Origin: Thermoanaerobaculia bacterium
Lineage (GTDB): Bacteria > Acidobacteriota > Thermoanaerobaculia > UBA5066
Length of the DNA: 64,000 bases
Assembly: GCA_963719225.1 (NCBI GenBank)
Contig: CAVRAY010000001.1
Location: 3,488,001 to 3,552,000 of the forward strand
Reading direction: 5' to 3'
The notes under the pieces were generated by a model, which saw only the letters and a program-made list of their open reading frames with translations, ran no database searches and was not told the DNA's origin. This document shows, in pieces, positions 46,930 through 60,228 of the stretch. Positions within the stretch are counted from its first letter, which is position 1; each line of letters begins with the position of its first letter. A program made the position numbers and the translations under genes.

Positions 46930-49900
46930 TCAGGGCGCGACGGCGGGCAGCTCCCGCTCCTTCCAGAGCATGTAGATCGCGGGATAGACGAGGAGCTCCA
47001 GTGCGAACGACGTCACCAGGCCGCCGACCATCGGCGCCGCGATGCGCTTCATCAGGTCGGCGCCCGCGCCTGTCGACCACATGATCGGAATCAGGCCGAA
47101 GAACGCCGCGCAGACGGTCATGGCCTTGGGCCGCACCCTCTTGACGGCGCCGTGGATGATCGACTCGACGAGGTCGGAGCGATTGCGGAGCAGCCCTTTC
47201 TCCTTCGCCTCGGCGTGCGCGAGGTCGAGGAACAGGAGCATGAAGATGCCCGTCTCCGCGTCGAGGCCCATGAGCGCGATCATGCCGACCCAGACCGCGA
47301 TCGACATGTTGTAGCCGAGGAGGTAAAGGAACCACACGGCGCCGATGATCGAGAACGGCACGGCGAGGAGGACGATCATCGTCTTCATCGCGGACTTCGT
47401 GTTCGCGTACATGAGGAGCCAGATGAGGACCAGCGTGACCGGGATGACGACCTTGAGCCGCTCCTTGACGCGGAGCATGTTCTCGAACTGGCCGCTCCAG
47501 ACGAGCGCGTAGCCGGGCGGAAGCTTGACGTTCCGGACGACGGCCTGCTTCGCCTTCTCGACGTAGCCCCCGATGTCCTCCTTCGACGTGTCGAAGTCGA
47601 CGTACACGTAACCCGATAGGAGGCCGTTCTCGTTCCGGATCATGGCGGGCCCCCGCAGCTGGCGGATGGCCGCGAGCTGGCCGAGCGGCACCTGGGTGCC
47701 GGACTTCGTCGTGACGAGGACGCGGGCGAGCCGGTCGAGATCCTCGCGCAGCTCGCGCGGGTAGCGCACGTTGACCGAGTAGCGCTCCTGCCCCTTGATG
47801 ATCGTCGTGACGGTCTCGCCCCCGATCGCCGTCATGATGACCGCGTTCGCGTCGTCCACGGTGAGGCCGTAACGGGCGAGCGCGTCCCGGTCGAGGTCGA
47901 AGTCGATGAAGTAGCCTCCGGCGACGCGCTCGGAGAAGACGGACCGCGTGCCCGGGACGGCCTTCACGGCCGCCTCGACCTCGGCGCCGATGCGCTCGAT
48001 CTCCCCGAGGCTCGCGCCGAACACCTTGATCCCGACCGGCGTCCGGATGCCGGTCGAGAGCATGTCGATCCGGTTCTTGATCGGCATCGTCCACGCGTTC
48101 GTGGTCCCGGGGATCTTCAGCGCCCGGTCCATCTCGTCCACGAGCTCGTCGTGCGAGATGTGGTCCTTCCACACGTGGCTGAGGGCGCCGGCGAGCCAAC
48201 GCGGCGCCCAGGACGAATACCAGCGGTCCTTCTTCCGCCACTCGCTCTCCGGCTTCAGGAGGACCGTCGTCTCCATCATCGAGAGCGGCGCCGGATCCGT
48301 CGACGTGTCTGCGCGTCCGGCCTTGCCGAACACGCGCTCGACCTCCGGGAAGGACGTCAGGACCCGGTCCTGGACCTGCAGCAGCCGCTCGGCCTCCGTC
48401 ACCGAGATCCCCGGCAGCGTCGTCGGCATGTAGAGGATCGAGCCCTCGTAGAGCGGCGGCATGAATTCCGACCCGAGCTTCAGGAAGACCGGGACCGTGG
48501 AGACCATCGCGAGGACGGCGATCGCGATCGTCGTCTTCGGATGCCGCAGGACGGCGCGGCAGGGGCGCTCGTACAACCGGTGGAGGATCACGCTGATGGG
48601 ATGTTTCTCTTCGGCGTAGTACTTCCCCACGGTGACCTGGTTGACGAGCCAGGCGAGCCACTTCGGACGGAACGAGAACCCGTCCATCCGCGCGAACAGC
48701 ATCCGGATCGCCGGATCGAGCGTGATGGCCAGGCAGGCCGCGATCGCCATCGCGAGGTTCTTCGAGTACGCGAGCGGCTTGAAGAGCCTGCCTTCCTGGT
48801 CCACGAGCGTGAAGACCGGCAGGAACGCGACCGCGATGACGAGGAGCGAGAAGAAGACGGACGGGCCGACCTCCATGAGCGCCTCGAGCCGGACCTTGTG
48901 GAAATCCCCGGGCCGCCCACCGTCGTTCCACAGCTGGAGCTTCTTGTAAGCGTTCTCGACCTCCACGATCGCGCCGTCCACGAGGATGCCGATCGAGATC
49001 GCGATGCCGCCGAGCGACATGATGTTGATGTTCAGGCCCATCGCGTTGAACGGGATGAACGCGAGAACGATGGAGATCGGAATCGTGACGATGGGAACGA
49101 TCGCGCTCGGGACGTGCCAGAGGAACACGAGGATCACGAGCGACACGACGACGATCTCCTCGATCAGCTTCGAGCGGAGCGTGTCGACGGAGCGCTTGAT
49201 CAGGTCGGACCGGTCGTAGGTCGTCACGACCTTCACGCCCGGCGGGAGCGACGGCTCGATCTCCTTCAGCCGGGCCTTCACGCGGTCGATGACGTCGAGC
49301 GCGTTCTCGCCGCTGCGCATCACGACGATGCCGCTCACGGCGTCGCCCTTCCCGTCGAGATCGGTGATCCCCCTCCGGATCTCGGGGCCGAGCGACACGC
49401 GTCCGATGTCCGCGACGGTCAGCGGCGTGCCCCTCTCGTTCGTCTTGACGACGATCTTCCCGATGTCCTCGATCGACTTGAGGTACCCGCGGCCGCGCAC
49501 CATGTATTCGCGCCCCGAGAACTCGATGAGGCGCCCGCCGATCTCGTTGTTGCTCTTGCGGATCGCCTCGACGACCGACTCGAGCGGCAGGCCGTACGCC
49601 GCGAGCGTATTCGGGTCCAGCGTCACCTGGTACTGTTTCTGGAAGCCGCCCACGGTCGCGACCTCCGCGACTCCCGGCACCGACTGCAGCGCGTACCTCA
49701 GGAACCAGTCCTGGTACGAGCGGATCTCGTCCGTCGCGTTCTTCCCGCTCGTGTCGACGAGCGCGTACTGGTAGATCCAGCCCACGCTCGTGGCGTCCGG
49801 TCCAAGCTCGGTCCTCACGCCGGCGGGGAGGTGCGACTGGATCTTCGAGAGGTACTCCAGGACGCGCGAGCGCGCCCAGTAGATGTCCGTACCGTCCTCG

Positions 49901-50187
49901 AAGATCACGTAGACGTACGAGAAGCCGAAGTCCGAAAAGCCCCGGATCGTCTTCACCTTCGGCGCGCCGAGGAGAGCCGTCACGATCGGGTACGTGACCT
50001 GGTCCTCGAGGACGTCCGGGCTGCGGTCCCAGCGCGAGAAGACGATGACCTGCGTGTCCGAGAGGTCGGGAATCGCGTCCAGCGGCGTCCTCCGGATGAC
50101 GCCGATCGCGAGGACGATGATGATCGCGTAGAACGCGATCACGAGGAACTTGTTCTCGGCCGAGAACCGGATGATCCGTCGGATCAT
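46930..50187 (-). CDS. cusA: CusA/CzcA-family heavy-metal RND permease
   Basis: PLDAIPDLSDTQVI, GPDATSVGW, MSLGGIAI, MPPLYEG, RVRPKAMT, MKRIAAPMVGG. Confidence 0.95.
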   Translation of the reverse strand: MIRRIIRFSAENKFLVIAFYAIIIVLAIGVIRRTPLDAIPDLSDTQVIVFSRWDRSPDVLEDQVTYPIVTALLGAPKVKTIRGFSDFGFSYVYVIFEDGTDIYWARSRVLEYLSKIQSHLPAGVRTELGPDATSVGWIYQYALVDTSGKNATDEIRSYQDWFLRYALQSVPGVAEVATVGGFQKQYQVTLDPNTLAAYGLPLESVVEAIRKSNNEIGGRLIEFSGREYMVRGRGYLKSIEDIGKIVVKTNERGTPLTVADIGRVSLGPEIRRGITDLDGKGDAVSGIVVMRSGENALDVIDRVKARLKEIEPSLPPGVKVVTTYDRSDLIKRSVDTLRSKLIEEIVVVSLVILVFLWHVPSAIVPIVTIPISIVLAFIPFNAMGLNINIMSLGGIAISIGILVDGAIVEVENAYKKLQLWNDGGRPGDFHKVRLEALMEVGPSVFFSLLVIAVAFLPVFTLVDQEGRLFKPLAYSKNLAMAIAACLAITLDPAIRMLFARMDGFSFRPKWLAWLVNQVTVGKYYAEEKHPISVILHRLYERPCRAVLRHPKTTIAIAVLAMVSTVPVFLKLGSEFMPPLYEGSILYMPTTLPGISVTEAERLLQVQDRVLTSFPEVERVFGKAGRADTSTDPAPLSMMETTVLLKPESEWRKKDRWYSSWAPRWLAGALSHVWKDHISHDELVDEMDRALKIPGTTNAWTMPIKNRIDMLSTGIRTPVGIKVFGASLGEIERIGAEVEAAVKAVPGTRSVFSERVAGGYFIDFDLDRDALARYGLTVDDANAVIMTAIGGETVTTIIKGQERYSVNVRYPRELREDLDRLARVLVTTKSGTQVPLGQLAAIRQLRGPAMIRNENGLLSGYVYVDFDTSKEDIGGYVEKAKQAVVRNVKLPPGYALVWSGQFENMLRVKERLKVVIPVTLVLIWLLMYANTKSAMKTMIVLLAVPFSIIGAVWFLYLLGYNMSIAVWVGMIALMGLDAETGIFMLLFLDLAHAEAKEKGLLRNRSDLVESIIHGAVKRVRPKAMTVCAAFFGLIPIMWSTGAGADLMKRIAAPMVGGLVTSFALELLVYPAIYMLWKERELPAVAP

Positions 50188-51485
50188 TTCGGAGCCCCCA
50201 TCGCCGAGATGGCGGCCTTCAGCCGCGACTCGGAGTCCACGAGGAAGTTCGCGCCCCTCACGACGACCTCGCCCTCCTTCAGGCCGGACCGGATCTCGAC
50301 GACGCCGGCGCCGTGATCCCCGACCGAGACCTCGCGCGGCACCAGCTTTCCCTCGCCCTGGACCACGAACGCGATGTTCCGGGTTCCACTCTCGAGAATC
50401 GCGCCATCCGGAACCTGCAGGACGTGCCGCATCGGCCCGTGGATCGTCACGTCGGCGAACATCTCGGGCTTCAGCTCCCCCTTCGGGTTGTCGAGCTCGA
50501 CGCGCACCTTCACGGTCCGCGTCTTCTCGTCGACGGACGGGTATATGAACGTCACGGTGCCGTTCCAGACGCGCCCGGGCCAGTATGAAAGCGTCACGGT
50601 CGCCTTCTGCCCCACGGAGAGTCGCGGTAGCTCGTACTCGTAGACGTCCGCGAGCACCCAGACGTGCGAGAGGTCGAGAATGTCGAAGAGCGTGTCGGAC
50701 GACGTCACCTTCATGCCGTGAAAGGCCGTGCGGGCCGTCACGTACCCCGAGATCGGCGCGTAGACCGGCAGGGCGCGGATCGGCTCGCCGTTCTTCTCGA
50801 TTCGCTCGATGTCGGCGGGCGTGATCTCCCAGAGGAGCAGGCGCTGGCGCGCGGCGGAGAGCAGATCCCGGCCGCCCTGCGCTGCAGACGCGACGCCCGA
50901 CGTGCCGAGCGCCTTCGACGCTTTGAGCGCGAGGAGGTACTCCTGCTCGGTCGCGTAGAGCTCTGGACTGTAGAGGAGAGCGAGGACCTCGCCCTTGTGG
51001 ACGTACTTGCCGGTGAAGTCGGCGGTCACGTGCTCGACGTAGGCCTCGTACCGCGTGTGGACGTGGTGGACCCGCCTCTCGTCCGCGGCGACGCGGCCCG
51101 ACGTCCGGATCGAGGTCGAAAAGGGCGCCCGTGCGACGACGACGGTCTTCAGCCCGAGGAGATTCTCCTTCCGCGCGTCCAGGGTTACGGTCGCGAGGCC
51201 GTCCGGACCCGGAGGCTCCAGAGCCACCGCCCCGGACGCGGTCGTGGACGAAGGCTGCTCGATCGGCACGAGCTTCATGCCGCAGATCGGACAGTCGCCG
51301 GGGGCGTCCTTGATGACCTGCGGATGCATCGGGCACTGCCACTTGCGGACGGTGCTCTTCGCCTCGACCCTTGCGGCGCCCGGCGCCGCCGATGGTTTCT
51401 CTCCGCAACCGTGGAGGGCGAGGACGGCCGCCGCCGCGAGGGCGAAGACGCAAAGGGAGCGTGGGATCATTCGAAGAAACGTCAT
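50184..51485 (-). CDS. cusB: CusB-like RND membrane-fusion protein with heavy-metal-binding domain
   Basis: WQCPMHP..CPICGMKL; YSPEL; LKPEMF; FLVDSES. Confidence 0.92.
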   Translation of the reverse strand: MTFLRMIPRSLCVFALAAAAVLALHGCGEKPSAAPGAARVEAKSTVRKWQCPMHPQVIKDAPGDCPICGMKLVPIEQPSSTTASGAVALEPPGPDGLATVTLDARKENLLGLKTVVVARAPFSTSIRTSGRVAADERRVHHVHTRYEAYVEHVTADFTGKYVHKGEVLALLYSPELYATEQEYLLALKASKALGTSGVASAAQGGRDLLSAARQRLLLWEITPADIERIEKNGEPIRALPVYAPISGYVTARTAFHGMKVTSSDTLFDILDLSHVWVLADVYEYELPRLSVGQKATVTLSYWPGRVWNGTVTFIYPSVDEKTRTVKVRVELDNPKGELKPEMFADVTIHGPMRHVLQVPDGAILESGTRNIAFVVQGEGKLVPREVSVGDHGAGVVEIRSGLKEGEVVVRGANFLVDSESRLKAAISAMGAPK

Positions 51486-51496
51486 GGCGGTTCTCC

Positions 51497-52852
51497 CTAC
51501 ATTCCGGCGGCGGCTACAGGCGATATGGGGCGATTCGGCGTCGCCGCCGTTCGCTCGAGCGAGAACTCGCGGAGATCGGCGTCGGCGCGGAGGATGTCGG
51601 CCAGCCGCGCGATGGCGGAGCGGCGGTCGGTGAAGCTGGTACTGAGAGCCTCGAGGACGGTCACGAAGGGCACGGAGCCTGCCCGGTAGCTCGCGAGCGC
51701 GGCGTCCACGGCGAGGCGGTCCTGGACGAGGAGGGCTCCGGAATCGAGCCGGGACTCCTCCTCGAGCTGCCGGATCCTGATCAGCCTCTGTTCCGTGAGG
51801 GCCGTGACCCGGCGCTGCAGGGACGCCTCCGTCGCCGAAGCCGACTCGAGCTGGCTCTCGGCCTCGGCGATGAGCGGGCGCTGCTTCCGGCCGGCCCAGA
51901 GCGGGATGGAAACCCCGACGGCGGCGGACCACATCAGGGGGAGCGAGCCGCGGTTCATGTAAGCGGCGGACGCCACGAAGTCGGGCCTGAGGTTGCGGCG
52001 CGCGAGGTCCCCGGCCAGACTGGACCGCTCCTTCGCGAGGGCGGCCTCCTTCAGCTCGGGCGTTACTTCCAGGGCCTTCTTCAGGAGCTCCAGTTCCGGC
52101 GGAGAGGCCGGGAGCTCACCTGGGACGAGTCGGCGCGCCGTCGGGATCCCCGCGTCCGCCGGTCGATAGAGAAGCTGCCGAAGGTCGACCAGCGCTCCCT
52201 GCTCGGCGGCCTCGTCTCGTCGCCGCTGCTGGAGGAGGCGCGTCCGCTCGCTCTGCGCGCGCAGGACGTCCTGCTGAGATCCCAGGCCGGCCGCGTACCG
52301 GACCCGGATGACCTCCTCGATCCCGCGCCAGGCTTCGATCTGCTCGTCCACGAGACGCAGATCCTCGCGCGTCTGGAGGAGCGTCGCGTAGCCGCGCCTC
52401 ACGGCCGCCTCGAGGGCGAGCGCGACGCGCTCCGGCCCGGTCGCGGAGCGGTCGGCGTCCGCCCTCGCGACGCGCTCTTGAAGCCCGAGCTTCCCCGGGA
52501 ACGGGAACGCCTGCTGCGCCACGAGCTCGATGCGCGACATCGGCTGCGTCCCGAGCGAGACCGACGTCCCGTCGTTCACGTACCCGAGGGAGAGCATCGG
52601 ATCCGGCAGCGCTCCGGCTGGCGCGACACGCGCGCGAGCGGCCGCCGCTTCCTGCTTCGCAGCGGCAAGCTCCGGATTCTTCTCGAGAGCCTCGGCGACG
52701 AGCGCATCGACTTCGGACCCGGTGGGGATCGCGGAGCCCGCCGAGAACGCGGCGCCAGAACCCAGGACAGCCGCAAAGGCGATGAGAACAACGCCTCCCC
52801 TTGCTCGGGACCTTCCAAGAAAATCTCTCTTCTCTTCTCTTCTCTTCAACAT
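51497..52852 (-). CDS. TolC-family outer-membrane efflux protein
   Basis: ALEKNPEL, GALPDPM, PFPGKLGL, YAAG..QQDVLRAQ; SD GAGGTG upstream. Confidence 0.92.
   Translation of the reverse strand: MLKRREEKRDFLGRSRARGGVVLIAFAAVLGSGAAFSAGSAIPTGSEVDALVAEALEKNPELAAAKQEAAAARARVAPAGALPDPMLSLGYVNDGTSVSLGTQPMSRIELVAQQAFPFPGKLGLQERVARADADRSATGPERVALALEAAVRRGYATLLQTREDLRLVDEQIEAWRGIEEVIRVRYAAGLGSQQDVLRAQSERTRLLQQRRRDEAAEQGALVDLRQLLYRPADAGIPTARRLVPGELPASPPELELLKKALEVTPELKEAALAKERSSLAGDLARRNLRPDFVASAAYMNRGSLPLMWSAAVGVSIPLWAGRKQRPLIAEAESQLESASATEASLQRRVTALTEQRLIRIRQLEEESRLDSGALLVQDRLAVDAALASYRAGSVPFVTVLEALSTSFTDRRSAIARLADILRADADLREFSLERTAATPNRPISPVAAAGM
52811..52847 (-). repeat. (AAGAG)4 pentamer tract, purine-run element copy C, inside tolC 5' end
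   Basis: CTCTT x4 at 52827-52846 on the + strand; followed on the coding strand by AGATTTTCTTGGAAGG. Confidence 0.75.
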
Positions 52853-52853
52853 C

Positions 52854-52923
52854 GATCACCTCGTCGAAAAGCCTCACGGAGCCGCCCTTTCGGGCGGCGC
52901 GAGAAATGTTCGACGAGAGATCA
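52854..52923 (-). promoter_or_regulatory. Predicted long hairpin pairing the leader-ORF stop region with the tolC Shine-Dalgarno
   Basis: GAUC-U-CUCGUCGAA pairs with UUCGACGAG-GU-GAUC; inner stem GCCGCCC-GAAA-GGGCGGC. Confidence 0.7.
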
Positions 52924-53310
52924 GACGAGGAGAGCGGCGAACAGGAGGAAGAGAGGGGCCGACCGGGCACGCGGCGCGACGCGGCGCGACGGCCCCGCGA
53001 AAGAAGCCGTCAGGGACGGATCCGGCAGCTCGCGCGTGGTCACGGCGGGCGCCGCGAGCACGGGGGACGCGGTCGATCGAAGCGAGGGCGCCGCTTCCTC
53101 CGGCGTCGAAAGCCGACAGCATCCCGCGGAGGAGTCGCCCGGAGCGTCCCCTCCCGTGCAGCAGCACGCCGATTCACCAGACATCGGGCAGACCGCCGCC
53201 TCCGCCGAAGGCCGAGGGAGCGCGAGAGCCGAGACCGACACGAACAGCGCCGCGAGAGCCGCGACTGCGCCTCGAAGGCGAAATCGGCGTCCGGAAGAGG
53301 TCCGCATCAC
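52921..53310 (-). CDS. Cys-rich exported leader protein upstream of efflux operon (DUF2946-like architecture)
   Basis: Signal/TM segment, CPM..CCC..CC, Pro/Ser linker, RARSAP-LFLLFAALLV tail. Confidence 0.7.
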   Translation of the reverse strand: MMRTSSGRRFRLRGAVAALAALFVSVSALALPRPSAEAAVCPMSGESACCCTGGDAPGDSSAGCCRLSTPEEAAPSLRSTASPVLAAPAVTTRELPDPSLTASFAGPSRRVAPRARSAPLFLLFAALLV

Positions 53311-53398
53311 ACAGGAGATTAACGCAAAGCCGGGCGGGATATTCCTGAGCCAGATGCTTCAGCGGGGTCAGAAGGCGACGCTGGGTGAAAATGAGGCT

Positions 53399-53977
53399 AT
53401 GGGATCGGTCACACCGCCGCCCGGACACGCGGCGCGCCCCGCGCCTCCGTCTCGTTTCGACGCCGGGCGTCCGGCCCCCCCGCTGGGTCCGTCGAGCCGC
53501 GCGATCCTGTTCGGCCTCTTTGCCATCGTGGCCGGGGCGTGGCTCGTGATGAAGGCGCCCACGAAGCTCGCGGCGAGCTCGCTGCCGCGACTCGGCGCGG
53601 ATGGAGCACCGGCCGGAGACGCGCCCGCCGGAAAGTGCGTCGGCACGAAAGGCTGCCTCATCGTCTACGTCGCGCCGTGGTGCGGCCCGTGCAAGGCGTC
53701 GCTTCCGGGCGATCGTGCTCTTGCCGACTTCGTGAAAAGCCGCGGCATCGAGACGACGTTCGTCGTGGGCATGGACACGATGCCGAGGTGCGCGGAGATG
53801 GCCCGCGCGATCGGCCGCGAGGTCCTCGTCGACGAGTCCGGTGCATGGGCCCGGAAGATGAGCATTCGTGGAGTGCCTACCTTCCTCGTGACGGGGCCCG
53901 ACGGCAGCGTGAGGAAGCGGCAGGCGGGCGCGCTGGTCGCGAGCCCGGACGTGGTCGCGCGGCACCTCGGACTTTGA
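53399..53977 (+). CDS. Membrane-anchored thioredoxin/TlpA-like protein
   Basis: TM helix, APWCGPC, cis-Pro motif GVPTF. Confidence 0.82.
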   Translation: MGSVTPPPGHAARPAPPSRFDAGRPAPPLGPSSRAILFGLFAIVAGAWLVMKAPTKLAASSLPRLGADGAPAGDAPAGKCVGTKGCLIVYVAPWCGPCKASLPGDRALADFVKSRGIETTFVVGMDTMPRCAEMARAIGREVLVDESGAWARKMSIRGVPTFLVTGPDGSVRKRQAGALVASPDVVARHLGL

Positions 53978-55586: not shown

Positions 55587-56057
55587 GTGCCCGGAAGATC
55601 CGTCATCCGCTTCGATCACGTCCTCCTCGAGGAGATCGCGAGGGCGGCCTCGGCGGCCTATCCGTTCGAGGGGTGCGGCGCGCTGCTCGGCGCGAGCGGC
55701 CACGCGCGCGTCATGCTTCCCCTTCCGAACGCCGAGCTGGACAGGCCGCGCGTCAGGTTCGAGATCTCGCCGAAGGACTACCTGCACGTCGAGCGTGAGG
55801 CCGAGGCGCGGGGCCTGCTCCTCCTCGGCTTCTGGCACAGCCACCCGAACCACCCCGCGCTTCCTTCTGACACGGACCTCTCCTGCGCCTGGGTCGGGCT
55901 CCTCACCGTCATCGTCTCGGTGCAGAAGGCAGAGGCCCGTGACATCGGGGCGTGGGAAATCCGTGCTCCCGAGCTTCCCTTCGAACCCGTCCAGATCGAG
56001 TGTCCCGATTTCGCGGGTCAGCCCGTAACGACGCTTTCGAAAAAAGGAGAGGCGTGA
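55587..56057 (+). CDS. JAMM/MPN+ (Mec/M67) metallopeptidase
   Basis: YPFEGCGALLG..WHSHPNHPALPSDTD. Confidence 0.92.
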   Translation: MPGRSVIRFDHVLLEEIARAASAAYPFEGCGALLGASGHARVMLPLPNAELDRPRVRFEISPKDYLHVEREAEARGLLLLGFWHSHPNHPALPSDTDLSCAWVGLLTVIVSVQKAEARDIGAWEIRAPELPFEPVQIECPDFAGQPVTTLSKKGEA

Positions 56058-56338
56058 TGTCCGTGCCCGTCCGAATCCCCACACCCCTCCGGCGCTTCAC
56101 GGGCGACCATGCCGAGCTGTCCGTCGAGGCGGCCGATCTCTCGTCCATCCTGAACAGGCTCTTCGAGGAGTATCCCGGCCTCGAATCCCAGCTCCTGAAT
56201 GAGGACGGAACGCTGCGGAGCTTCGTGAACCTCTACGTCAACGACGAGGACGTCCGCTTTCTCGACGGCCTGAAGACGCGCGTCGCGGACGGGGACTCGG
56301 TCTCCATCGTCCCCGCCATCGCGGGTGGAGCGCGATGA
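56057..56338 (+). CDS. MoaD/ThiS/CysO-like sulfur carrier with masked C-terminus (GG-AR)
   Basis: VRIPTPLR..FVNLYVNDEDVRFLDGL..IVPAIAGGAR. Confidence 0.92.
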   Translation: MSVPVRIPTPLRRFTGDHAELSVEAADLSSILNRLFEEYPGLESQLLNEDGTLRSFVNLYVNDEDVRFLDGLKTRVADGDSVSIVPAIAGGAR

Positions 56339-57537
56339 CGTCCCGGCCGCCCGGCCCGGGGACGCGAGCCGCCCGCGGCGGCGAGAGGCGGAAGAAAGCG
56401 CTCGACGCCGTCACGCAGCCCATCGTCTGCACCTCCACCTATGCCTTCGACGGCACCGCAGAGATCCGCGACCACTTCGAGGGCCGGATCCAGCGCGAGG
56501 AATACGGCCGGTACGGAAACCCGACCGTGCGGACGGCGGAGCGGAAAATCGCCGAGCTGGACGGGGCGGAGGACTGCGTCCTCTTCTCGAGCGGGATGGC
56601 GGCGGCCACGACGGCGCTCCTCGCGCTCCTGAAAAACGGCCAGCACGTCGTCATGACATCCGATTGCTACCGGCGGACCCGGCAGTTCGTGTCGAAGACG
56701 CTGCCCCGCTGGGGGATCGATCACACGTTCGTCGAGCCGGGGAATTACGACGCGCTCGAGAGCGCGATCCGGCCCGGAAAGACGCGCCTCGTCCTGGCGG
56801 AATCGCCCACGAACCCGTACCTCAGGGTCGTGGACCTTCCGCGCCTCGTCGCGATCCGCGACCGGCATCCCGGCGTGAAGATCCTCATCGATTCCACGTT
56901 CGCGACTCCCGTCAACGAGCGGCCAATCGGGTTCGGCGTGGACCTCGTCCTCCATTCGGCCACGAAATACCTCGGCGGCCACAACGACCTCCTCGCCGGC
57001 TCTCTCTCGGGAAACGCGTCGCTCATCTCCGGCCTGCGCGACCTTCGCGGCGTTCTCGGGGCCGTCCTCGACCCGCACCCGGCATACCTGCTCCTCCGCG
57101 GCGCCAAGACGCTCGAGCTCCGCGTGAAGCGCCAGAACGAGACCGCCCTCCGCGTCGCGGCCTGGCTCGAGGCGCATCCGCGCGTGGAGCGCGTCTTCTA
57201 TCCCGGCCTCCCGAGCCACCCGGACCACGAGGTCGCGGCGCGTCAGATGTCGGGCTTCGGCGGCGTCGTGAGCTTCCTCGTGAAAGGCGGGCTCGACGAC
57301 GCGTCCCGCTTCATCGACGCCACGACGCTCCCGATCATCGCGCCGTCCCTCGGCGGCGTGGAGAGCCTCATCGAGCAGCCGGCCCTCATGTCCTTCTACG
57401 AGCTCACGACCGCGGAGCGCCTCGCGATCGGGATCTTCGACAACCTCGTGCGGCTGGCCGTGGGCATCGAGGACGCCGAGGATCTCGTCGCGGACCTCGG
57501 CAACGCGCTCGACGTCTCCGCGAAGGAGCTCCCATGA
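56335..57537 (+). CDS. Cys/Met-metabolism PLP enzyme (cystathionine gamma-synthase / sulfhydrylase family)
   Basis: YGRYGNPT, FSSGMAA, ESPTNP, DSTFATP, HSATKYLGGHND, SLGGVESL. Confidence 0.92.
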   Translation: MTSRPPGPGTRAARGGERRKKALDAVTQPIVCTSTYAFDGTAEIRDHFEGRIQREEYGRYGNPTVRTAERKIAELDGAEDCVLFSSGMAAATTALLALLKNGQHVVMTSDCYRRTRQFVSKTLPRWGIDHTFVEPGNYDALESAIRPGKTRLVLAESPTNPYLRVVDLPRLVAIRDRHPGVKILIDSTFATPVNERPIGFGVDLVLHSATKYLGGHNDLLAGSLSGNASLISGLRDLRGVLGAVLDPHPAYLLLRGAKTLELRVKRQNETALRVAAWLEAHPRVERVFYPGLPSHPDHEVAARQMSGFGGVVSFLVKGGLDDASRFIDATTLPIIAPSLGGVESLIEQPALMSFYELTTAERLAIGIFDNLVRLAVGIEDAEDLVADLGNALDVSAKELP

Positions 57538-58706
57538 CGGCCCCCTCGGCGCCGGCCGGTGACCTCAGCCGCGAGGAGCTCCAGCGCTACTCGCGTCATC
57601 TCATCATGCCGGAGGTCGGCCTCGACGGGCAGAAGAAGCTGAAGGCCGCGCGCGTCCTGTGCGTGGGAGCGGGCGGTCTCGGCTCGCCGCTCGCGCTCTA
57701 CCTCGCCGCGGCGGGCGTCGGCACGCTCGGCCTCGTGGACTTCGACGTCGTGGACTCTTCGAACCTGCAGCGCCAGATCCTGCACGGCACGAAGGACGTC
57801 GGGCGAAAAAAGCTCGAGTCCGCGGCCGAGCGGCTCGAGGACGTCAACCCGAACGTGACCGTCGTCGGGCACGAGGTCCGTCTCTCGTCGGAGAACGCGC
57901 TCGACCTCCTTCGCGATTACGACGTGATCGCCGACGGCACGGACAACTTCCCGACCCGCTATCTCGTGAACGACGCCTGCGTGCTTCTCGGGAAGCCGAA
58001 CGCGTACGCGTCGATCTTCCGATTCGAAGGGCAGGCGTCGGTCTTCTGGGCGGCGAAGGGCCCGTGCTACCGCTGCCTCTATCAGGACCCGCCCCCGCCG
58101 GGGCTCGTCCCGTCCTGTGCGGAGGGCGGCGTGCTCGGCATCCTGCCGGGCCTCCTCGGAGTGATCCAGGCGACGGAGACGATCAAGCTCATCCTCGGCG
58201 TCGGCGAATCGCTCGTCGGCCGGCTCCTCCTCGTGGACGCGCTCGGCATGAATTTCCGCCAGCTCAAAGTGCGCAAGAACCCCGATTGCGTCGTCTGCGG
58301 CGCGAACCCCACGGTGACGCGGCTCATCGACTACGAGGAGTTCTGTGGTATCCCTCAGGCGAAGGAAGAGGAGAAGCGAGAGATGGGCGTGCCGGCGATC
58401 ACGGTGCAGGAGCTGAAGAAGAGAATGGACGACGGCGAGCCGTTCGTACTCGTGGACGTGCGCGAGCCGAACGAGTTCGCGATCTCCCAGCTCCCCGGCT
58501 CGGTCAAGATCCCGCTCGGAACTCTTCCCGCGAGCGTGAACACGCTCTCCACGGCCGACGACATCGTGGTCCACTGCCGCACCGGCATCCGCAGCGCGAG
58601 GGCGGTGCAGTTCCTGATGTCGGCCGGCTTCAAGAAAGTCTGGAACCTGACGGGTGGAATCGACCGCTGGGCCGTGGAGATCGATCCCACCGTGCCGCGG
58701 TACTGA
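57534..58706 (+). CDS. moeB: MoeB/MoeZ-type adenylyltransferase with C-terminal rhodanese
   Basis: RYSRH, GAGGLGSP, SNLQRQ, CYRC, CAEGGV, CVVC; rhodanese DVRE..HCRTGIRS. Confidence 0.95.
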   Translation: MTAPSAPAGDLSREELQRYSRHLIMPEVGLDGQKKLKAARVLCVGAGGLGSPLALYLAAAGVGTLGLVDFDVVDSSNLQRQILHGTKDVGRKKLESAAERLEDVNPNVTVVGHEVRLSSENALDLLRDYDVIADGTDNFPTRYLVNDACVLLGKPNAYASIFRFEGQASVFWAAKGPCYRCLYQDPPPPGLVPSCAEGGVLGILPGLLGVIQATETIKLILGVGESLVGRLLLVDALGMNFRQLKVRKNPDCVVCGANPTVTRLIDYEEFCGIPQAKEEEKREMGVPAITVQELKKRMDDGEPFVLVDVREPNEFAISQLPGSVKIPLGTLPASVNTLSTADDIVVHCRTGIRSARAVQFLMSAGFKKVWNLTGGIDRWAVEIDPTVPRY

Positions 58707-58748
58707 ACCTCGCCCACGCCCGGAAACCCAGCCGCAGGAGCACTTTGT

Positions 58749-58788
58749 GGGCACTCCCCTTGCCCTTCTGTGGTTATCGGTGTACTTT
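58749..58788 (+). promoter_or_regulatory. Putative promoter of HTH-EIIA/hyf operon (overlapping sigma54-like and sigma70-like matches)
   Basis: GGCAC-TCCCC-TTGC (GG-N10-GC) and TTGCCC-N17-TACTTT. Confidence 0.45.
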
Positions 58789-58826
58789 GTTGTCTAGCGT
58801 TGTCCATCTGTGACAGGCACGCAGAC

Positions 58827-59543
58827 ATGAGTCCCGAAACCCAGGCAGGCGACATCCTGACGATCAAGCAACTCTCCGAGTACCTCATGGTCTCGGAGAA
58901 GACGATCTATCGGATGCTCGACAAGGGTCTCCTGCCGGCCCTTCGCATCGGCGCGCAGTGGAGGTTTCGGAAGCGCGACATCGACGGCTGGCTGGACGAG
59001 CGGGTCAGAAAAGTGGAGGTCGAAGGTCAGAACGCGGTCCTCGAGGAGCTCGCGCCTTCGGAGATCGACATCCACCCGCTGCTTCTCCCGGAAAACGTCT
59101 GGCTCGACGTGCCGGCCCGGCCTCGAGACGAGCTCCTCTCCTGGATCGTCGACCATGCGACTCTCGAGCCCGGTGTCGACCGCCACGCGTTGTACGAATC
59201 GATTCGCGCGCGGGAGCTCGTCTGCTCGACCGCGCTCGTCGAGGACGCGGCCTTTCCCCATCCGAACGAAACCGCCGACTTCCGTTTTTCGCGAAAACGG
59301 ATCCTCCTCGCCGTCGTGCGCGAGAGGGTGGACTTTCACGATCCGAACGGCCACCGTCCCCGCGTCCTCGTGGTCATCCTCGCCCGGACGACCCAGGGCT
59401 ATCTCCTCACGATCTCGCGCGCGGTGAAGCTCTTCGGAAACGCTTCGCTGATCGGCCGCCTCACGGGAAGCACCACGGCCGAAGAGATCATCGGCTCCAT
59501 TCGTGACGCGGAGGAACGCCTGAAGGCGTCGGCTCTCAGGTGA
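58827..59543 (+). CDS. HTH_17 (excisionase-like) + PTS EIIA domain protein, copy 1
   Basis: LTIKQLSEYL..TIYR..IGAQWRF; STA...AAFPH phospho-His motif. Confidence 0.88.
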   Translation: MSPETQAGDILTIKQLSEYLMVSEKTIYRMLDKGLLPALRIGAQWRFRKRDIDGWLDERVRKVEVEGQNAVLEELAPSEIDIHPLLLPENVWLDVPARPRDELLSWIVDHATLEPGVDRHALYESIRARELVCSTALVEDAAFPHPNETADFRFSRKRILLAVVRERVDFHDPNGHRPRVLVVILARTTQGYLLTISRAVKLFGNASLIGRLTGSTTAEEIIGSIRDAEERLKASALR

Positions 59544-59556
59544 AAGGAGTCCCCGC

Positions 59557-60228
59557 GTGCGCGTGACGGTCCGCGAAGCCGCGGCGCTCCTCGACTCTCC
59601 CGAGGAGAAGGTCTACGCCTGGATCGAGTCCGGCGATCTGCCGGCGTACCGCATCAACGACCAGTACCGCATCAACCGGAGCGAGCTCCTGGAGTGGGCG
59701 ACCTCCCGCCACCTCCCCGTGGACCCCGCTCTGTTCCACGAAGAGGATGAGGACGAGCGCATCCCGTCGGTCGCCGAGAGCCTCGAGCGCGGAGGCGTCT
59801 TTCACGACGTCGCAGGAGCGACCCGGGAGGACGCGCTTCGCTCGGTCATCGCCCTCCTGAAGCTCGACGACGAAGGGGACCGGGAAGCGCTGCTCCAGCT
59901 CCTCCTCGCGCGGGACGCCGCGGCGGTCGTGCCGGTCGGCGACGGGATCGCGATTCCGCACGTGAGAAACCCGATCGCCCTGTCCGCCGACGAGCCGTCG
60001 TTGTCCCTCGCGTTTCTCCGGCAGCCCGTCGACTTCAACGCGCCGGACGGCAAGGGTGTCTTCGCGCTCTTCTTCCTCGTCAGCCCCACGACCCGCGTTC
60101 ACCTCCAGATGCTCGCGAAGATCGCGTTTCTCCTCGGCGACCCGCAATTTCGCGATGCGATTCGCGGCCGCGAACCGGCCGCCTCACTGATCGATCTGGC
60201 GCGGATCCTCGAAAAGGCGAAGGCGTGA
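59557..60228 (+). CDS. HTH_17 + PTS EIIA domain protein, copy 2
   Basis: TVREAAALL..VYAWI..LPAYRINDQYR; GDGIAIPH; VDFNAPDG. Confidence 0.9.
   Translation: MRVTVREAAALLDSPEEKVYAWIESGDLPAYRINDQYRINRSELLEWATSRHLPVDPALFHEEDEDERIPSVAESLERGGVFHDVAGATREDALRSVIALLKLDDEGDREALLQLLLARDAAAVVPVGDGIAIPHVRNPIALSADEPSLSLAFLRQPVDFNAPDGKGVFALFFLVSPTTRVHLQMLAKIAFLLGDPQFRDAIRGREPAASLIDLARILEKAKA

Follow-up and report, generated by a model that had tools for sequence, protein, structure and literature searches.

The 64,000-nucleotide stretch analysed here (the window) comes from a Thermoanaerobaculia bacterium of the phylum Acidobacteriota (GenBank assembly GCA_963719225.1, contig CAVRAY010000001.1, positions 3,488,001 to 3,552,000) and carries a small Cys-bearing open reading frame (ORF) directly before the genes of a heavy-metal efflux pump; this leader, its C-terminal tail and the RNA hairpin that follows it are the subject of what follows. 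Positions are those of the window, and features lie on the minus strand unless stated otherwise. The gene order is leader-tolC-cusB-cusA. The leader (52921..53307) stops 68 nt before the ATG (52852) of tolC/cusC, which encodes an outer-membrane efflux protein of 451 aa (51497..52852; PF02321, E 3e-32). It is followed by a cusB-type adaptor with an N-terminal heavy-metal-binding domain (50184..51488; PF16576 and PF19335, with the NCBIfam CusB model NF007303 as best match, below its cut-off) and by a heavy-metal resistance-nodulation-division pump of the CusA/CzcA family, Cu(I)/Ag(I) type (46930..50187; TIGR00914, 1057 bits, over cut-off). The pump is far nearer to Escherichia coli CusA (E 1e-302) than to ZneA (E 1e-147), and Met is kept at three positions which we take to be the Cu(I)/Ag(I) site of CusA. 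A preliminary description, made from the letters alone, had proposed a metal-sensing leader peptide controlling a cusCBA-like operon; the operon bears out its name, and the leader with its Cys groups, tail, spacer and both hairpin arms lies where that description had placed it.

Only the length of the leader needs amending. The frame described as 129 aa does exist from a GTG at 53310 (53310-52921), yet translation more likely begins at the ATG at 53307, giving 128 aa, because a TAnnnT hexamer precedes this codon by 8 nt, just as in close homologs. In the window the hexamer is TAATCT (53316..53321), a putative -10 element; close homologs, read by eye, have a TAnnnT at 7-8 nt from the ATG, so placed that the leader mRNA is itself likely leaderless. 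A strict sigma70 scan returned no full promoter at the leader. Residues 1-29 (53221..53307) read by eye as a Sec signal peptide, with a basic n-region, a hydrophobic core (hydropathy peak 2.6) and an A-x-A end; a Tat signal was considered and rejected because the twin Arg is absent from homologs. Behind the signal stand the Cys residues of the pattern CPM..CCC..CC, namely C40, C48-C50 and C63-C64 (53116..53190), putative Cu(I)/Ag(I) ligands, of which one is invariant and two nearly so among 23 close homologs. From the last of them 64 residues run to the C-terminus, where the protein ends RARSAPLFLLFAALLV before its stop codon. Neither Pfam nor NCBIfam yielded a family when the leader and its relatives were scanned. 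Against HYC_CC_PP (NF047658)/DUF8199 the window protein gave no match and one of 58 members matched at E 0.023; DUF8199 is also an Atlas feature neighbour of the leader (score 0.94), which serves as a lead only. A second leader of the same type was not found elsewhere in the genome.

The end of this protein is conserved. A search with the leader returned 22 matches, 20 of them ending in PRARSAPL[FH]LL, and the ten genome loci of leader homologs are labelled Thermoanaerobaculia (8) or Acidobacteriota (2). The tail RARSAP-LFLLFAALLV (52924..52971), a putative arrest sequence, was recovered in 24 of 27 homologous loci; 22 of these 24 have a start called 68-73 nt past the stop, with a product that matches the window TolC in 21. 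Within the home genus RARSAP is near-invariant. Across 13 close homologs pN/pS is 0.20 over the last 20 leader codons, where pS is normal (0.38), and 0.60-0.74 over the rest of the leader. At position -2 (counted back from the stop) all six Arg codons are used. Given this low ratio and this codon variety, the tail is selected as a peptide and the body is only loosely constrained, as would be expected of a nascent-chain sensor. A purely RNA role for the tail, as partner of the tolC Shine-Dalgarno (SD) sequence, was for the same reasons rejected as sole cause. Its codons are nevertheless mildly biased to CTC and TTC, with CTC favoured over CTG, which may leave room for an added RNA role, and in several lineages the predicted SD partner is located in the last leader codons. 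Several homologous loci or proteins (L006, L011, P0005 and P0011) are frameshifted within the leader or at the start of tolC, which probably reflects errors of assembly.

The claim that nearly the whole spacer folds into one hairpin hiding the tolC SD held up on folding. Region 52830-52940 is predicted to form a single long hairpin of -52.3 kcal/mol (z -3.65; none of 200 shuffles as stable), the minimum free energy and centroid structures agreeing on its arms. The anti-SD arm (52909..52922) begins inside the UGA stop of the leader; the SD arm (52850..52868) holds the tolC SD GAGGTG (52862-52857) and the start codon, neither of which is left unpaired in the fold predicted for free mRNA. Positions 52922-52909 pair with 52868-52854, and the upper hairpin (52872..52904) consists of a middle helix (52904-52899 with 52877-52872) and a GC-rich cap stem, GCCGCCC-GAAA-GGGCGGC (52898-52881). 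In the predicted fold the last leader codon pairs with the tolC start codon. An alignment of 30 distinct stop-to-start regions from close homologs, with duplicates and the divergent loci L050 and L053 left out, has 85.6% of its cells paired: 88.9% in the middle helix, with one of six pairs changed on both sides, and 95.2% in the cap stem, with three of seven so changed. Covariation in this alignment scores 0.168, compared with 0.108 after shuffling (0/500) and at most 0.102 after sliding. The hairpin is thus conserved, with strict covariation clearest in the cap stem. RNAalifold on a longer alignment (A2) mis-registered the outer stem and was set aside for a shorter one (A4). As a separate observation, tolC codons 2-10 form an AGA/GAA-rich purine run (KRREEKR; 52825-52847), kept in most close homologs, which could pair with the pyrimidine-rich leader tail (52939-52953), with the spacer CUUUUC or with a conserved downstream UUUUCUU; such pairing may extend or re-route the switch.

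How far a ribosome on the leader would expose the tolC start was estimated with equilibrium models in which the ribosome footprint is blocked, with an assumed reach of 15 nt. Opening the tolC SD and AUG in free mRNA costs 24.7 kcal/mol, the highest value among 150 sampled SD-led starts of the genome (median 11.4), a sample that appears to include tolC. With a ribosome at the leader stop the cost falls to 11.4 kcal/mol, the genome median; with a ribosome at the RSAP proline it is 20.4. Over a longer folded span the corresponding values are 18.8 free, 11.5 at the stop and 18.9 at the proline. In these models, then, the tolC start reaches the genome median only with a ribosome at the last two leader codons, not at RSAP, and the site opens only when the leader end is occupied, much as the preliminary description had supposed of a ribosome terminating or pausing there.

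It is worth noting that searches with the leader sequence found the home family only, together with one distant protein ending GPPLFLLHRALLI, and that a leader profile matched 12 of 401 phylum genomes, four strongly (all home family) and eight weakly. Because these searches stayed so close to home, a wider class was sought through the neighbouring tolC. The window TolC had matches in 37 of 201 class genomes at 1e-40 and in 127 of 401 phylum genomes at 1e-25; 105 loci were read, of which three had no candidate and 23 were dropped by eye (two duplicates, and 21 in which the best frame did not have the layout of signal plus Cys, three of these cut short), leaving 79 leaders including that of the window, many of them kin and hence not independent. 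They share almost no alignable body beyond Cys and Pro. Their ends are alike: L or F stands at -3 in 76, R or L at -2 in all 79, and I or V at -1 in 65, with N there in six, so that the phylum-wide core is [LF]-[RL]-(I/V/N)-stop. The pair CC occurs in 74, and in 69 a distance of 56-72 residues separates the last cluster Cys from the end; CxxC or CxxxC is found in 27, whereas the window leader, with its C, CCC and CC, has neither. The median spacer is 72 nt, and the stop is TGA in 69, a codon common in high-GC genomes anyway. As the first candidate scoring favoured hydrophobic ends, the count was redone without it: 62 of 97 TolC loci had an upstream frame ending [LF][RL][IV]-stop (62 of 221 frame ends), against a background of 26 in 38,455 frame ends of this genome, the pattern having been derived from the same loci as were counted. 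RAPP or RGPP occurs in none of the 79, in keeping with the earlier remark on a non-RAPP tail, and none matches DUF2946 (PF11162) at E <= 0.05; PF11162 is absent from the window genome, while a positive control matched in two of 14 genomes. Among 59 other loci with spacers of at most 95 nt, a ribosome at the stop lowers the modelled opening cost by over 3 kcal in 36, one at codon -6 in 20 and one at codon -11 in six. Where an SD was called, it is for the most part paired in 73 of 75 loci, a measure given without background comparison. The window TolC had no plasmid match at 1e-15. A Methylomonas plasmid carries a similar leader ending CTFLN-stop before tolC. Plasmids of Ca. Manganitrophus (L145/L146, about 1480-1786) have an unannotated signal-plus-Cys ORF before tolC which ends KASPLFFRPY-stop about 180 nt upstream of it, with either a different tail or an assembly frameshift.

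The concept of such a leader is not new. An efflux-linked counterpart of opposite logic to the copper leader CruR, implied to be novel in the preliminary description, has been published as CutF of Rhodobacter capsulatus: copper-induced stalling of the exported CutF unfolds an SD stem-loop (PMC9973294). CutF-cutO (PMC9973294; PMC8456105) shares with the window a small Cys-bearing upstream ORF with a Sec signal (in the window leader, a candidate one read by eye), a short spacer and an SD-shielding stem-loop, predicted and conserved in the present case; both leaders head copper-defence genes, and OEP/CusC is the commonest neighbour of the CutF-like class (PMC9973294). That class was defined by length (<150 aa), by an N-terminal Sec signal, by a Cys/His metal motif (CxxxC in the 2021 rule, with variants admitted afterwards), by a same-strand metal-homeostasis gene after a short spacer and by PP within the last 15 residues; the window leader has the length (128-129 aa) and the neighbours (68 nt to tolC-cusB-cusA) but no PP, which is present in 14 of the 79 phylum leaders. 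CutF has CxxxC and, 45 residues on, a PPP two residues before its end, at which the stall is located and to which EF-P is linked (PMC9973294; bioRxiv 10.1101/2025.02.05.636593), whereas the window leader has CCC/CC, a last stretch of 15 residues free of PP, an 11-residue conserved tail and 64 residues from Cys to end. The difference from the known concept is therefore the tail. CruR of Bordetella pertussis (DUF2946), named earlier as the comparator, is likewise a Cys-bearing upstream ORF with a fixed, functionally tested spacing of Cys to C-terminal motif (PMC9426467), shown to arrest at RAPP (PMC12992588) and acting on copper-homeostasis genes in cis. It is nonetheless more distant than CutF and SilD/CusD: its CxxC and RAPP lie 45 residues apart, it matches PF11162, copper relieves its arrest, it works through Rho termination, and its spacer of 162 nt leads to an importer (PMC9426467). 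TnaC and PepNL resemble the window leader in a proposed arrest at a UGA stop and differ as short cytoplasmic tryptophan sensors, neither exported nor equipped with a metal cluster (PMC11890864; TnaC from PMC9973294). No description of this terminal motif or of termination arrest in such leaders was found in literature searches that left subscription journals and figure contents uncovered; the tail may already be within List D or the logos of Fig. S6 of PMC9973294.

The nearest named layout, as judged from sequence, is SilD of Cupriavidus metallidurans (silDCBA), and the window leader falls outside both DUF2946 and the PP-defined CutF-like set. The CutF-like network of PMC9973294 labels SilD and CusD and notes CzcI as lacking the proline motif; SilD is described as of function unknown (PMC7563307), and literature searches found no test of its mechanism. 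On pMOL30 it stands before a tolC-B-A set, ending PRPPPRPLAILHCCFRI before a stop 72 nt from silC, with 62 residues from last Cys to end (59-63 in most relatives) and an SD-covering hairpin that begins at the stop (z -3.07). In the models silC costs 17.5 to open without a ribosome, 8.1 once a ribosome occupies the stop and 17.0 when it stands at codons -15 to -13. SilD and its 80 homologs have F at -3 in 74 cases and R at -2 in 65, the last residue being T in 43, I in 18 and N in 18; PF11162 matches two of the 80. RARSAP-LFLLFAALLV of the window stands in register with RAPPPP-LSILHCCFRT of the SilD family (RAPPPP-LxILHCCFR[TIN]-stop in relatives), a register marked in SilD by P-11, L-10, L-7, F-3, R-2 and I/T/N-1, and the window leader fits a SilD/CusD-type terminal register, drawn up within the present analysis, of P-L-x-x-L-x-x-x-[FL]-[RL]-x-stop some 60 residues from the last Cys and before tolC. 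SilD and its relatives differ in having CxxxC and in keeping PP (77 of 81), mostly as RAPPPP. A shared layout, and not established homology, is claimed, because only the last 15 residues align between SilD and the Acidobacteriota profile (hhalign probability 4.5%); the close relatives of the window leader are absent among the 80 SilD matches. As an observation on SilD itself (L149:24-419 (-), L150), its prolines lie 11-15 codons before the stop, mostly too far away to melt the modelled silC hairpin, which is opened most from the stop, and SilD may thus carry two candidate arrest elements.

This shared register invites a different reading of the window leader, in which elongation arrests at R-A-R-S-A-P, taken as a degenerate form of RAPP/RAGP located 11 codons ahead of the stop; the arrest would then act by long-range pairing of the pyrimidine-rich tail codons or via Rho. 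Its RA at -16/-15 and P at -11 match the register of RAPPPP in SilD relatives, the motif is near-invariant in the home genus, as said, and one folded span gives a 4-kcal fall at codon -11. Across the phylum the motif is not kept (P at -11 in 33 of 79, no RAPP or RGPP), a ribosome there leaves the tolC site in the top 4% of occluded starts, and 'RSAP' is absent from the main text of PMC12992588; we hold arrest at this site to be unlikely. Conserved ends may also be read without any arrest at all. A hydrophobic-x-hydrophobic C-terminus is a PDZ-like recognition motif, and the leader could be a periplasmic metal-binding peptide acting in trans, its tail a recognition or degradation tag and the hairpin merely setting tolC output. 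The predicted signal peptide and six Cys would suit such a protein, as would the [LF]-x-[IV] end of most Acidobacteriota leaders. We nevertheless find it decidedly unlikely: constraint on the body is weak, and apart from Cys and Pro no phylum-wide alignment of it can be made; position -2 is strictly R or L, and 61 of 81 SilD-family proteins end in T or N and six of 79 leaders in N, which a hydrophobic-end rule forbids; and neither CutF nor CopL acts in trans (PMC9973294).

Whether the operon is also under transcriptional control bears on two further alternatives. Upstream of the leader promoter lies a 16-bp imperfect palindrome of the type TGAnGC-N4-GCnTCA (53346..53361), present in many close homologs and kept even where the upstream gene differs. 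Better TGA(T/A)GC-N4-GCnTCA copies precede other genes of the genome (contig C1, 1032848, 1144641, 1895686, 3559131 and 317864), including a P-type ATPase-like gene and one for a predicted secreted protein, so that the palindrome is a candidate transcription factor site and may mark that factor's regulon. Several more distant leaders have, at a similar place, a TGTGA-N6-TCACA-like box, presumably of CRP/FNR type. In plain translational coupling every terminating ribosome would open the hairpin, the pump would track leader translation, and metal control would be transcriptional. Since the base of the hairpin extends over the stop, ordinary termination might be enough, and a trans regulator is just what the palindrome suggests. 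No regulator ORF is evident near the operon in the ORF list (44-60 kb), so the earlier statement that no CusRS/CueR-type regulator is adjacent still stands; neither a CusR-type gene over cut-off nor a CsoR is encoded in the genome (97% complete), whose three best MerR matches have no Cys in the translated part. Plain coupling also leaves the fixed Cys-to-end distance, the protein-level selection on the tail and the kept Cys cluster unexplained, and we judge it rather unlikely. In a TnaC- or CruR-like alternative, transcription itself would be controlled, a ribosome at the stop shielding a C/U-rich Rho entry site, with the hairpin secondary. Rho is present in the genome, the tail codons and first spacer bases are C/U-rich, with the preference for CTC over CTG already noted, and in C. 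metallidurans copper induces cusCBAF and not cusD transcripts (PMC7563307). The spacer is, however, short and almost wholly paired, unlike the 162-nt spacer of CruR, and polarity after blocked tolC translation would leave the same RNA pattern, making Rho-based control very unlikely in our estimation.

The reading that we prefer, at slightly better than an even chance, is that of a CutF/SilD-type leader without PP, in which a putative metal-prolonged arrest at the last codons or the stop opens the tolC start. What the loci display is a gene order, a conserved tail selected as protein, a fixed distance from Cys to end and a conserved potential for pairing over the tolC start. On these the proposed mechanism would build as follows: the leader would be exported co-translationally; metal bound by its probably exported Cys cluster would hold the ribosome at the last codons or stop; arrest would occur at termination through the [LF][RL](I/V/N) tail and, as no prolines are used, presumably without EF-P; and the held ribosome would melt the base of the hairpin, exposing the tolC start and switching pump translation on. 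The metal-on direction would follow from the analogy to CutF and from the role of the pump. In favour of a leader acting in cis and coupled to an SD-hiding hairpin, as first suggested, are the check on homologous spacers, in which the hairpin is kept, and the conservation and selection of the tail. The modelled opening from the stop, the Cys-to-end spacing and the parallel with SilD count on the same side, as do the lack of a CusR-type gene over cut-off, of CsoR and of Cys in the three best MerR matches, and the induction by copper of cusCBAF but not of cusD in C. metallidurans (PMC7563307).

Several points weigh against this preferred reading. Firstly, geometry is no proof of arrest, because any terminating ribosome would open the hairpin briefly, and the conserved palindrome suggests that transcription is controlled too. 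Secondly, 10 of 31 pairs change on both sides in the hairpin alignment against 6-9 in slid controls, the consensus structure for the covariation test was taken from the window's own sequence, and the SD/anti-SD core shows little covariation since its pairs are almost invariant. Thirdly, the modelled cost varies with the span folded (18.8 or 24.7 kcal/mol for the window), the effect is uneven outside the home family, with no 3-kcal drop at the stop in 23 of the 59 other loci, and spacer z is below -2 in 45 of 75 loci only. Finally, silC of C. metallidurans opens partially with a ribosome at codon -11 of SilD (12.7), and silDCBA is not induced by acute copper (PMC7563307).

The surroundings of the operon add some observations in their own right. 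Divergent from the leader lies a thioredoxin-like gene with CxxC and a predicted membrane anchor (53399-53977, plus strand). Most of the close-homolog loci that were read also have it upstream of the leader, in some cases with a further gene in between. Further on, at 58770-60228, two neighbouring genes resemble by eye fusions of a helix-turn-helix to a PTS EIIA-type domain, and adjoin a sulfur cluster with MoeB/ThiS/Mov34-like and cystathionine-lyase-like genes (55587-58754).

Copper-sensing leaders known so far stall at prolines while the chain is being elongated. Should the tail examined here stall the ribosome at the stop, it would do so by a different, EF-P-independent arrest chemistry that couples periplasmic metal to release-factor action, and published counts based on PP would overlook the majority of these leaders in one of the major phyla of soil (PP is lacking in 65 of the 79 read here). 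More broadly, and tentatively, at a little under an even chance, these leaders may represent a widespread group of arrest peptides, exported, metal-sensing and proline-free, in which the ribosome stalls at termination by way of a C-terminal [LF]-[RL]-(I/V/N/T)-stop; this would be the usual switch before Cus-type pumps of Acidobacteriota and possibly the real arrest element of the SilD/CusD type in Pseudomonadota. For SilD and CusD this raises the question of which part arrests the ribosome, the prolines or the last three residues. If such a proline-free class is real, PP-filtered searches would largely pass over its members, and a periplasmic ligand would be linked to peptide release.

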